Shown piece by piece: positions 14,247 through 16,477 of a stretch of DNA of 38,347 bases. The stretch is from a virus (lineage: Duplodnaviria > Heunggongvirae > Uroviricota > Caudoviricetes). The DNA lies in IMG/VR virus record IMGVR_UViG_2718218452_000008, positions 1 through 38,347 of that record, one strand, 5' to 3'. The position numbers were made by a program, and so were the translations under genes. Under the pieces are notes generated by a model. The model saw only the letters and a list, made by a program, of their open reading frames with translations, ran no database searches and had not been told where the DNA came from. The number at the start of each line of letters is the position of its first letter. The first letter of the stretch is position 1.

Positions 14247-14453
14247 ATGGAAAAAATCACAACAGGTGTGTCATACACCACGTCAGCGGTAGGGACGGGA
14301 TACTGGTTACTGCAACTGCTGGACAAAGTCTCTCCGTCCCAGTGGGTGGCAATAGGTGTGCTGGGGAGTCTGCTGTTTGGCCTGCTGACGTATCTGACTA
14401 ACCTTTATTTCAAGATTAAAGAAGATAAGCGTAAGGTGGCGCGGGGAGAGTAG
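14247..14453 (+). CDS. Class II holin (phage 21 S21-like pinholin), 68 aa
   Basis: [68 protein letters not shown] closely parallels S21 as recalled. The track ORF starts upstream at 14178. Confidence 0.85.
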
Positions 14454-14708
14454 TCGATGAATAAACAATACGAACTGGTTGTAAAATGAATATTTCTAAC
14501 TGAAAAAACGTTCCATGAGGTGAGAAAAGGTCACAGGCAATCAATAACAGGACGTGATGAAAGACCCTTGCATTTGTGCGCTTTCTCTTTAGATAGCAGC
14601 AGATACTGAAAATCTGAGTTGTCGGGGAGTCAGGGATACAGCTGTGCAAGAGTTGGTCATTGTGATTCCATTGAAATCCTGTATGCCATGAAGGGCAGGA
14701 TTTTATGG

Positions 14709-15023
14709 CTACCTGAGCTTTGGTGATAGTAAGTTGAAAATTCGCATTTTTTGCTGACATGCGTAACGAGAATCCCATAAGCAGGGAGGACTTAATTCTT
14801 CATTAACCCATGCGTTGATATTATGTTTCAGCCGTTGAAGCATCAGCGGTGTTAATGTTGTGGTAATAATATCCAGCGTTTTATGTGAGATCTTACCGTA
14901 AGGGTCTGCAAGAATGCTGCTTGTTGCTTCGTTATTATCTGCCATCAGAAGAAGTAACTCTGATTTAACGTTTTCTGTCATTAGTTGTAAAAATCTTCTG
15001 CGCAAACTTTCTTTACTGTTCAT
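14709..15023 (-). CDS. Hypothetical protein on the opposite strand in an insert between holin and endolysin
   Basis: 104-aa ORF in a roughly 690-bp lower-GC insert separating S and R; no clear Shine-Dalgarno. Confidence 0.3.
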   Translation of the reverse strand: MNSKESLRRRFLQLMTENVKSELLLLMADNNEATSSILADPYGKISHKTLDIITTTLTPLMLQRLKHNINAWVNEELSPPCLWDSRYACQQKMRIFNLLSPKLR

Positions 15024-15140
15024 TTATATGGCTTCATTTGTTGTAATCTGCTGCGTCTCAAGGGATATGTTTATGAGAGCGACCATGAGTGTTGGATTAT
15101 ATACCTAACATATCAAGGGATTAGAAATCGATAAATCCCC

Positions 15141-15674
15141 ATGAACGAAAAAATAAAATACGGCCTGTCGGCTGCCGTTCTGGCGCTGATTGGTGCAGGT
15201 GCTTCTGCGCCTGAAATCCTCGACCAGTTTCTGGATGAAAAGGAAGGTAACCACACCACGGCATACCGTGATGGTGCGGGGATCTGGACCATCTGCCGTG
15301 GTGCCATTCTGGTGGATGGTAAGCCTGTTATTCCTGGCATGAAGCTGTCAAAGGAAAAATGCGACCGGGTTAATGCCATCGAACGTGACAAGGCGCTGGC
15401 ATGGGTGGAGAAAAACATCCGGGTGCCGCTGACCGAACCCCAGAAAGCGGGGATCGCGTCATTCTGTCCGTACAACATTGGCCCCGGTAAGTGCTTCCCG
15501 TCGACGTTTTATAAACGAATTAATGCAGGCGATCGAAAAGGTGCCTGTGAGGCGATTCGCTGGTGGATTAAGGACGGTGGCAGAGACTGCCGTATCCGTT
15601 CAAATAATTGCTACGGTCAGGTCTCACGGCGTGACCAGGAGAGCGCGCTGGCGTGCTGGGACATCGACAGATAG
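15141..15674 (+). CDS. SAR endolysin (T4-lysozyme-like, GH24) with N-terminal signal-anchor-release segment
   Basis: N-terminal Gly/Ala-rich weakly hydrophobic segment (YGLSAAVLALIGAGASA) followed by a lysozyme-like E...D...T catalytic region (EGNHTTAYRDGAGIWTICRG). Downstream of a pinholin. Confidence 0.8.
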   Translation: MNEKIKYGLSAAVLALIGAGASAPEILDQFLDEKEGNHTTAYRDGAGIWTICRGAILVDGKPVIPGMKLSKEKCDRVNAIERDKALAWVEKNIRVPLTEPQKAGIASFCPYNIGPGKCFPSTFYKRINAGDRKGACEAIRWWIKDGGRDCRIRSNNCYGQVSRRDQESALACWDIDR

Positions 15675-15764
15675 CAGAATATTTTCCTGAAAAATGACGT
15701 TGGCCAACGCGGGTGGATAACACGAAATCCTGAAAACTGGTAAAACCTAAGTGAATAAAAGTAA

Positions 15765-15800
15765 AAACCCCGTTTGTTGGCAGCAAGCGGGGTTTTGTGT
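15765..15800 (+). terminator. Intrinsic terminator downstream of the endolysin gene
   Basis: CCCCGTTTG-TTGGCAG-CAAGCGGGG hairpin (one mismatch) followed by TTTTGTGTTTT. Confidence 0.55.
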
Positions 15801-15894
15801 TTTCTGACCTTGAGTAAGGCAAGGGAGAAATTATGGGTAGGGAGGTACTTTCCCTGTGAGGAAGTATAAAAGATTCTTTCTGAGGTTGTCCATT

Positions 15895-16008
15895 ATGAAA
15901 GGCATTGAAGTGGAGACGCCAGCCAGTCTGGATTTAACAAGAGCGGCAGCTTTTGCCATTCGTATTGTGGCCATTGCTGTTCTGGTCTGGGCAATCCGTT
16001 GGTGGTGA
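15895..16008 (+). CDS. Candidate small single-TM protein (37 aa) immediately upstream of Rz
   Basis: ATG with GAGG about 9 nt upstream, encoding MKGIEVETPASLDLTRAAAFAIRIVAIAVLVWAIRWW; its stop lies 2 nt before the Rz ATG. Confidence 0.3.
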   Translation: MKGIEVETPASLDLTRAAAFAIRIVAIAVLVWAIRWW

Positions 16009-16009
16009 T

Positions 16010-16477
16010 ATGAACCGTGTTCTGTGCGTGGTTATCATTGTCCTGCTGGTGGCCTGTGGTGCGCTTAGTCTGGGGCTGAATCATTACCGTGATCACGCCA
16101 TCATCTACAAAGAGCAGCGCGATAAAAAAGCCAGTGAGCTGGAGCTGGCGAACGCGACAATTACTGATATGCAGATACGCCAGCGTGATGTCGCTGCACT
16201 TGATGCCAGATACTCGAGGGAATTAGCCGATGCGAGAGCTGAAAATGAAACTCTGCGTGCTGATGTTGCCGCTGGTCGTAAGCGCCTGCGGATCAACGCC
16301 ACCTGCTCCGGTACCGTGCGTGAAGCCACCGGCACCTCCGGCGTGGATAATGCAACCGGCCCCCGACTGGCAGACACCGCTGAACGGGATTATTTCATCC
16401 TCAGAGAACGGCTGATGGCAATGCAGAAGCAACTGGAAGGAGCACAGGAATATATCCGTACCCAGTGTATACCGTGA
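16010..16477 (+). CDS. Rz i-spanin (155 aa)
   Basis: N-terminal TM segment, coiled-coil middle, position after the endolysin, and an embedded Rz1 frame. Confidence 0.8.
   Translation: MNRVLCVVIIVLLVACGALSLGLNHYRDHAIIYKEQRDKKASELELANATITDMQIRQRDVAALDARYSRELADARAENETLRADVAAGRKRLRINATCSGTVREATGTSGVDNATGPRLADTAERDYFILRERLMAMQKQLEGAQEYIRTQCIP
16245..16415 (+). CDS. Rz1 o-spanin lipoprotein embedded in Rz in the +1 frame
   Basis: MKLCVLMLPLVVSACGS lipoprotein signal with lipobox, followed by a Pro-rich mature region (PPAPVPCVKPPAPPAW). Confidence 0.75.
   Translation: MKLCVLMLPLVVSACGSTPPAPVPCVKPPAPPAWIMQPAPDWQTPLNGIISSSENG

Follow-up and report, generated by a model that had tools for sequence, protein, structure and literature searches.

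A phage-21-type lysis cassette with variable gene junctions and a conserved reverse-oriented small gene in a lambdoid prophage of Escherichia coli

Late genes of lambdoid phages are transcribed from pR′ by a Q-modified, terminator-resistant polymerase. The holin genes (S) of Shiga toxin (Stx) phages, that of H-19B included, have been classed as P21-family pinholins (PMC10462455), and YdfR, whose gene lies in the slot after S in H-19B, was described to bind RNase E's catalytic domain, to co-purify with RNA and possibly to bind RNA (PMC13232886). Here we analyse a lysis cassette of this kind at positions 14247–16477 of what we call the window, the whole 38,347-nucleotide stretch of IMG/VR record IMGVR_UViG_2718218452_000008. 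In this cassette the holin gene S and the endolysin gene R are separated by a gap that holds, on the opposite strand, an open reading frame (ORF) of 104 codons, ORF104. An earlier note on this DNA had described the region as a pinholin and signal-anchor-release (SAR) endolysin cassette that was unusually interrupted by an insert.

Our results show that the cassette is real but ordinary, as it is of a known kind, carries known kinds of mosaic insertion and is widely distributed. The novelty is limited to two points: the reverse gene encodes a small protein that is conserved, selected and invariant in its synteny, and two of the small genes at the locus are under-annotated. The reading we prefer, with a probability of roughly 0.6, is that of an intact phage-21-type cassette in a Q-dependent late operon, in which the S-R and R-Rz junctions are variable slots for accessory genes and ORF104 is a moron.

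The lysis genes themselves are readily assigned. S (14247–14453, plus strand) encodes a 68-aa class II (P21-family) pinholin, which fits the profile PF04971 ('Bacteriophage P21 holin S'; 1.9e-32) over positions 1–63 of 64, falls also into PHROG holin families and is listed in RefSeq as 'class II holin family protein' (WP_000411804.1). Its second transmembrane domain (TMD2) is strongly hydrophobic (Kyte-Doolittle 15-residue maximum of 2.25, residues 34–48) and is followed by a charged C-terminal tail. The first segment (residues 7–25) is weakly hydrophobic, or SAR-like (Kyte-Doolittle below 0.8), a topology that is predicted from hydropathy only. As a P21-type pinholin, S would form small pinholes, not large holes, and depolarise the membrane in this way. 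The dual-start motif is missing at 14232–14249, where the upstream Met codon is ATA and the sequence reads IHQM, as in H-19B; it is present as MYQM, with ATG, in phage 86, 783R2 and the loci L005 and L009. Because of this codon, the window S would be made in the 68-aa holin form only, and not in a longer antiholin form.

R (15141–15674, plus strand) encodes an R21-type SAR endolysin of 177 aa with a T4-lysozyme fold (PF00959, 7.6e-24). Residues 9–151 align to the structures 3HDE (phage 21 lysozyme) and 4ZPU (RrrD), and the catalytic triad Glu-8aa-Asp-5aa-Thr (E35, D44 and T50) is conserved with respect to both. The N-terminal SAR segment that the note had seen corresponds to residues 9–23, LSAAVLALIGAGASA, which are Gly/Ala-rich, moderately hydrophobic (Kyte-Doolittle 1.9) and aligned with the SAR segment of R21. 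There is no Cys in residues 1–30, that is, no regulatory Cys, unlike in P1 Lyz. R is a distant relative of R21 (E-value of 1.6e-16), not an ortholog-level one. As an R21-type enzyme it would be exported via Sec, tethered to the membrane and released on depolarisation.

The spanins complete the set. Rz (16010–16477, plus strand) is the inner-membrane subunit (PF03245, 8.4e-49), with an N-terminal transmembrane segment at residues 4–18. Embedded in it in the +1 frame is Rz1 (16230–16415, plus strand), the outer-membrane lipoprotein subunit (PF06085, 1.7e-21), whose signal-peptide-like segment closes with a lipobox-like ...VVSAC. Family matches and alignment for pinholin, SAR endolysin and embedded spanins thus agree with the phage-21-type system proposed in the note.

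The S-R gap (14454–15140) is 687 bp long and has a GC content of 0.392, compared with 0.502 in S and 0.543 in R; the note's estimate of about 690 bp of lower-GC DNA was therefore correct. Three nucleotides after the S stop, a tblastn search with the N-terminus of phage 86 orf5 located a ten-codon stub (MNKQYELVVK and a stop) of a ydfR/orf5-type (DUF1327) gene at 14457–14489 on the plus strand. Homology to H-19B DNA runs from S through this stub to 14492 and resumes at 15103. Since it includes the first ydfR codons on one side and starts again on the other, the alignment identifies the gap segment as a mosaic replacement and not a simple insertion. RefSeq genomes label the gap of H-19B 'YdfR family protein'; ydfR, the usual occupant after S, is destroyed in the window. 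Comparison with seven loci placed the borders of homology blocks at about 14461–14492, 14707, 15103, 15802–15830 and 15949–16010, a pattern that resolves the cassette into the following mosaic parts: S, the cargo of the gap, R together with its 3′ tail and hairpin, the R-Rz cargo, and Rz. The notion of an interrupting insert is therefore right in one respect only: foreign, lower-GC DNA does stand where Sp5 has a 4-bp junction, but it arrived as a mosaic replacement and leaves the cassette undisrupted.

Downstream of the stub, positions 14530–14661 (plus strand) may be what decay has left of the larger forward gene that occupies this slot in relatives, namely of its C-terminal domain (PHROG 1085). 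The matches are weak: tblastn gave 36% identity over 44 aa, with E-values that are valid for a tiny search space only, and hmmsearch gave 12 bits at profile positions 145–185, with in-frame stops. Strand and order are as in the intact loci. A 255-bp segment of the gap is invariant over about 625 genomes, and no intermediate forms were seen.

On the other side of the gap lies the divergent intergenic region between ORF104 and R (15024–15140), which holds the R leader on the plus strand and a candidate ORF104 promoter on the minus strand. In an alignment of six loci, the one block common to all gap types is the stretch of ~40 nt (from ~15103) that leads up to the R ATG, and for this reason R carries its own leader irrespective of the type of gap upstream. 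At about 15128–15131 the window leader has a 10-bp deletion (TGATAAATAT), one copy of a short direct repeat; these 10 bp are otherwise invariant in the R leader of relatives. No good Shine-Dalgarno sequence was found near the R ATG in any relative.

The note's view of the gap as unusual did not survive the genome counts. Among 5,426 complete E. coli genomes, the window-type 687-bp gap occurs in 630 (625–630), the ydfR-type 399-bp gap of H-19B in 1,258, and the tight Sp5-type junction (4 bp in Sakai Sp5) in 965, the latter two being counted at a coverage of at least 80%. In E. coli prophages, a filled S-R gap is no rarer than a tight junction. The window type is present at 99% identity or more in 621 records, with up to three copies in one genome; O26 11368 and strain C7 are among its carriers. 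Sakai Sp17 was considered as a further carrier and rejected, as it is of the ydfR type. Additionally, the same succession of S, a forward gene, a reverse 104-aa gene and R is annotated in the complete genome of phage 86.

S-R spacing is not universal in the family, as it varies between ~4 bp and over 1,100 bp, and the reverse ORF is conserved; the refuting condition named in the note, a uniform spacing with no conservation of the ORF, therefore does not apply. The arrangements seen include S directly followed by R; S-ydfR-R; S-ydfR-R with an unrelated reverse 90-aa gene between the last two; S, a forward gene of 213–268 aa, the reverse 104-aa gene and R; and S, the reverse gene and R with a spacer of ~100 bp. 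Spacing at the S-R and R-Rz junctions of Stx-type prophages is thus a mosaic variable, and a gap there does not indicate that the lysis system is broken.

ORF104 itself (14709–15023, minus strand, 104 codons, GC 0.384) matches phrog_1853 at 3.5e-47. Its length alone is weak evidence for a gene, because an ORF this long would arise by chance in 687 bp at 39% GC with a probability of roughly 0.08 (our own rough arithmetic). A homology search, proposed in the note, connected it to PHROG 1853, to orf6 of the Stx2 phage 86 and to homologs that are 49–79% identical overall. Database homologs are 64–79% identical, and orf6 and a homolog of an Stx2a phage 49–53%. All of them keep the full frame of 104–106 codons from the same Met. 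The ratio of nonsynonymous to synonymous substitution rates (dN/dS) is 0.13–0.30 against three diverged homologs (49–64% identity), as calculated by the Nei-Gojobori method with synonymous sites near saturation. Judged by this full-length conservation and dN/dS, ORF104 is a real, conserved gene under purifying selection.

RefSeq annotates ORF104 (WP_000138558.1) as a 90-aa protein that starts at Met15 (14709–14981), which is 14 codons too short. As the 14 codons above Met15 are conserved in all diverged homologs, the 104-codon form is the likely product. The protein (12.1 kDa, pI 9.3) has no transmembrane or signal segment, and its AlphaFold (AF2) model is a five-helix bundle (pLDDT 84.7, pTM 0.74), so it is predicted to be soluble and helical.

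The position of the gene is strictly kept. Out of 79 IMG/VR loci, 73 have both flanks, and in all 73 the reverse gene lies between S and R on the strand opposite to both. Its start is 117–161 bp from the R start in these loci, and L005–L009 have the same layout. The gene occurs in three architectures, namely with the forward gene, with a remnant only (the window type) and with neither, and because of this it does not depend on its forward neighbour. In the short architecture (L066, L067 and L070), 99–134 bp separate the reverse gene from S. At the same junction ORF104 is absent from H-19B, Sp5, Sp17 and 783R2.

The family is tiny, with 20 representatives among 1.84 billion. A scan of one genome per species returned no relative, which marks the family as accessory at the strain level. 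Its members are confined to lambdoid prophages of E. coli and to Stx phages. Phage vB_EcoS-783R2 (783R2, L003) carries at 828–1100 a reverse 90-aa gene (PHROG 2411) in the same slot and orientation beside R. Kinship of this gene with ORF104 was considered and rejected, as hhalign gave a probability of 0.1%. Small genes in reverse orientation seem to be drawn to this slot upstream of R.

The second variable junction begins with the end of the R module. A segment of 89 nt after the R stop (15675–15763, plus strand) is 79–92% identical over eight relatives, compared with 72–92% at the third codon positions of R, and its identity is the higher of the two in six of the eight comparisons. This is mild evidence that the 3′ untranslated segment may be under constraint. 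It is followed at 15764–15796, within a few bases of where the note had put it, by a hairpin of 15 pairs that resembles a bidirectional intrinsic terminator. Its energy is −20.0 kcal/mol on the plus strand and −13.6 kcal/mol on the minus strand, with the T-rich tails GTGTTTTCTG and TACTTTTATT, respectively.

The hairpin is present in most of the 80 loci with a complete R, and its changes across them fall mainly in the loop or at wobble positions, or turn G-U into A-U. An unrelated hairpin (GGCACC..GGTGCC and TTTGTCATTT) takes the same place in Sp5, phage 86, L064 and a few others. In about nine of the 80 loci there is no R-Rz gap: Rz coding begins almost at once and the hairpin is absent. Since it is kept, replaced or absent in this way, alignment of the 80 loci marks the hairpin as a family-wide, optional element at the end of the R module and not as a local peculiarity of this DNA. 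Homology blocks shared with relatives end just past it, at 15802–15830.

We also considered small RNAs (sRNAs) in the gaps and rejected them. In 13950–16600 no Rfam sRNA family (AgvB/AsxR, STnc100 and others) reached its gathering score, and below that threshold there were only terminator-driven chance matches with E-values of 0.4 or more. No sequence similar to the conserved 3′ region of AgvB/AsxR was found in the same interval, and folding gave z-scores of −1.6 to −2.3, which are not remarkable. Of the Hfq-bound EcOnc peaks that are listed for Sakai Sp5, not one falls into the R-ant gap of that prophage.

Between the hairpin and Rz lies orf50 (15856–16008, plus strand), the gene of a small single-pass membrane protein, which matches phrog_4493 over all 50 residues (1.4e-24) and is homologous to a 60-aa ORF of L005. 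It has a GTG start with GGAGG 7–8 nt upstream, a hydrophobic segment at residues 30–44 and a stop 1 nt ahead of the Rz ATG. Like ORF104, it is under-annotated: RefSeq has a shorter 37-aa form from an ATG (15895–16008). In relatives the same R-Rz slot is occupied by the orf50 type, by an unrelated family of small membrane ORFs (MSDKLI...GISF...) or by ant. A promoter-like site on the minus strand (15892–15863), which could give an RNA of ~100 nt ending at the hairpin, is probably due to chance, because it lies inside the conserved coding sequence of orf50.

How such a cassette might be expressed can be outlined as follows. A plus-strand terminator at 14166–14192, before S, means that expression of the whole cassette presupposes antitermination. 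As the polymerase modified by Q is resistant to terminators, the Q gene lies upstream and a terminator already precedes S, we infer that S, R, orf50 and Rz/Rz1 would still be co-transcribed after induction, hairpin or not. The hairpin would act as an intrinsic terminator that closes the R module: without Q, it would end stray transcription from both directions and protect the 3′ end of R, and after induction it would be read through. Downstream of it, orf50 may be coupled to Rz. ORF104 would be a moron in the sense of lambda bor. If expressed at all, it would be expressed in the lysogen from a promoter of its own, since its GC is low, close relatives lack it and it runs against late transcription, and it would be overrun once Q-modified polymerase floods the operon.

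Several observations weigh against this reading. The anatomy of a classical moron, with promoter, gene and terminator, is incomplete, as no intrinsic terminator follows ORF104 on the minus strand between 14708 and the S stop. A standard promoter scan of 15024–15140 found nothing; a lenient one gave a minus-strand candidate with TTCTAA at 15126–15121 and TATAAT at 15101–15096, in which the −35 element is poor and the spacer is 19 bp long. The TATAAT is common to L005 and not conserved in the phage 86 lineage. ORF104 has no informative match to any fold, family or defence system, with PADLOC, Pfam and NCBIfam returning nothing for it or for the forward-gene protein. Moreover, the fact that it is always attached to R could point to a functional link with lysis and not to free cargo. 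The window-type gap has no blastn match in 50,697 deposited phage genomes, in which the only homologs of ORF104 are of the phage 86 type (52–53% identical); the absence could reflect sampling bias or a link to non-inducible prophages. Finally, the prophage copy is probably defective, because it has a frameshift in the portal gene and truncations in several tail genes, so that activity of this particular cassette is no more than putative.

The attachment to R is the starting point of the alternative that holds up best, although we consider it rather unlikely: that ORF104 or its transcript controls lysis, either as a protein that modulates the action or timing of holin and endolysin or as an antisense RNA that damps leaky expression of the pinholin or forward gene in lysogens. 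The gene is head-to-head with R and convergent on S in all 73 loci and all three architectures. An antisense transcript would meet no terminator before S, from which the short architecture separates the reverse gene by as little as 99 bp, and another brake on S would be useful because the window S lacks the dual-start codon for an antiholin. However, many relatives, H-19B and Sp5 included, manage without ORF104, and the loss of the dual start does not track with it, as neither is present in H-19B and the phage 86 type carries the two together. The predicted protein is soluble, unlike S, R and Rz, whose place of action is the membrane or periplasm, and purifying selection on the protein speaks against a purely RNA role. 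The most far-reaching form of this idea, in which ORF104 (PHROG 1853) would be a lysogeny-expressed regulator tied to SAR-endolysin cassettes and, as a protein or an unterminated antisense transcript, would restrain leaky pinholin and endolysin or tune lysis timing as a new class of lysis control in Stx-type phages, strikes us as improbable.

It is similarly improbable that ORF104 and the convergent forward gene (PHROG 1085 C-domain) form a two-gene module, such as a toxin/antidote or anti-phage pair, of which the window would keep an orphan half. The forward gene does lie 10–25 bp from the ORF104 stop in every locus of the lineages with 52–67% identity, and the window may keep its remnant. 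Nevertheless, two independent lineages retain ORF104 without the partner, namely the window type (48 IMG/VR loci and ~630 genomes) and the short type. The N-terminal half of the forward gene is freely swapped (DUF1327 or another), and the lack of PADLOC, Pfam and NCBIfam matches for either protein also counts against such a pair.

The view of the gap as inert debris of a dying prophage, with ORF104 a decaying relic and the cassette out of use, is also poorly credible: it would agree with the damaged portal, tail and TerB genes, the destroyed forward gene, the absence of the gap type from deposited phages and the near-identity of its copies, which carry little information on selection, but not with a reverse gene that keeps its full frame at about 50% divergence under purifying selection across lineages and has homologs in complete Stx phage genomes, nor with S, R, orf50, Rz and Rz1 all being intact.

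The setting of the cassette, which we take as an accessory-bearing part of a late operon, is that of a lambdoid prophage in the bovine E. coli strain C7 (NZ_CP010240, 4113463–4151809), to which the window is 100% identical. Upstream are, in order, the dicA/dicC immunity region, hokD/sok, the Q antiterminator gene (~9876–10565), three tRNAs, a TerB pseudogene and a NanS-p-type sialate esterase gene (12106–13956), directly before the lysis genes; these are followed by genes for a PerC homolog, the terminase, the head and the tail. The damage extends to truncated NlpC/P60 genes and to an internal stop in TerB, and the five lysis-region genes have remained intact despite it. Rfam matches at the gathering score were obtained for DicF (175–226, minus strand), sok, which adjoins hokD (7306–7480, plus strand), the tRNAs downstream of Q (10776–11022, plus strand) and the PasD-related sRNA STnc100 just upstream of the esterase (11796–11968, plus strand).

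The spacer between esterase and S (13957–14246) gave no Rfam match. It contains a minus-strand terminator right after the esterase stop (13993–13964) and the plus-strand one, found by terminator scan 55 bp ahead of S. Over 13900–17000 there are 9 terminator-like sites, compared with 3.0 ± 1.7 in shuffled sequences. The sRNAs PasA and PasC have been located exactly between sialate esterase and holin (2026 preprint). In Sakai Sp4, an Hfq peak, EcOnc52, lies on the minus strand at the 3′ end of the esterase.

The DNA 3′ of Rz (16478–17260) is very low in GC, with a minimum of 28.5%. It holds a 46-aa ORF (16560–16700, PHROG 2157) and the gene of a PerC-family regulator (16943–17257, PF06069, 3.8e-44), and constitutes a further accessory insertion between the lysis genes and terminase.

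Should either of the two small genes be shown to act in lysis, this would be of medical interest, because lysis timing controls the release of Shiga toxin from related phages; nothing in our analysis demonstrates one.

Compared with known systems, ORF104 resembles the lambdoid morons, of which lambda bor and lom are examples (Juhala et al. 2000, as quoted in PMC4104026). It is present in some relatives only, lies in the late operon, deviates in GC and runs against late transcription. In phage 86 and Sp5, bor is reversed just after Rz and has the same anti-late orientation. The bor product is a lipoprotein with a role in serum resistance; unlike it, the ORF104 product is a predicted soluble helical protein, and its gene has no convincing promoter or terminator of its own.

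The essQ-ydfR-rrrQ order of Qin and H-19B uses the same slot directly after S, and the window keeps the first 10 ydfR-type codons. Unlike in Qin and H-19B, the body of ydfR is replaced by ~610 bp that carry ORF104, to which YdfR is unrelated in sequence.

With phage 21, and with H-19B, whose S annotation notes a similarity to phage 21 S and whose DNA is 93.7% identical to the window over 13987–14492 (S included), the cassette shares the holin family PF04971. It also has the endolysin class of phage 21, including the SAR segment at the N-terminus and the E-D-T triad that aligns to 3HDE, and the embedded spanins. Unlike in phage 21, the S-R and R-Rz junctions are filled and not tight, the endolysin is only distantly related to R21, and S has no upstream antiholin start.

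The Stx2-converting phage 86 (AB255436) has the layout S-orf5-orf6-R-ant-Rz. It differs from the window in its intact 268-aa orf5 (DUF1327 and C-domain), which the window has as a stub and a possible remnant, and in another hairpin after R, followed by ant. Otherwise the layout is the same: R is 125–130 bp from the reverse 104-aa gene, and this gene, orf6, is a 53% identical homolog of ORF104.

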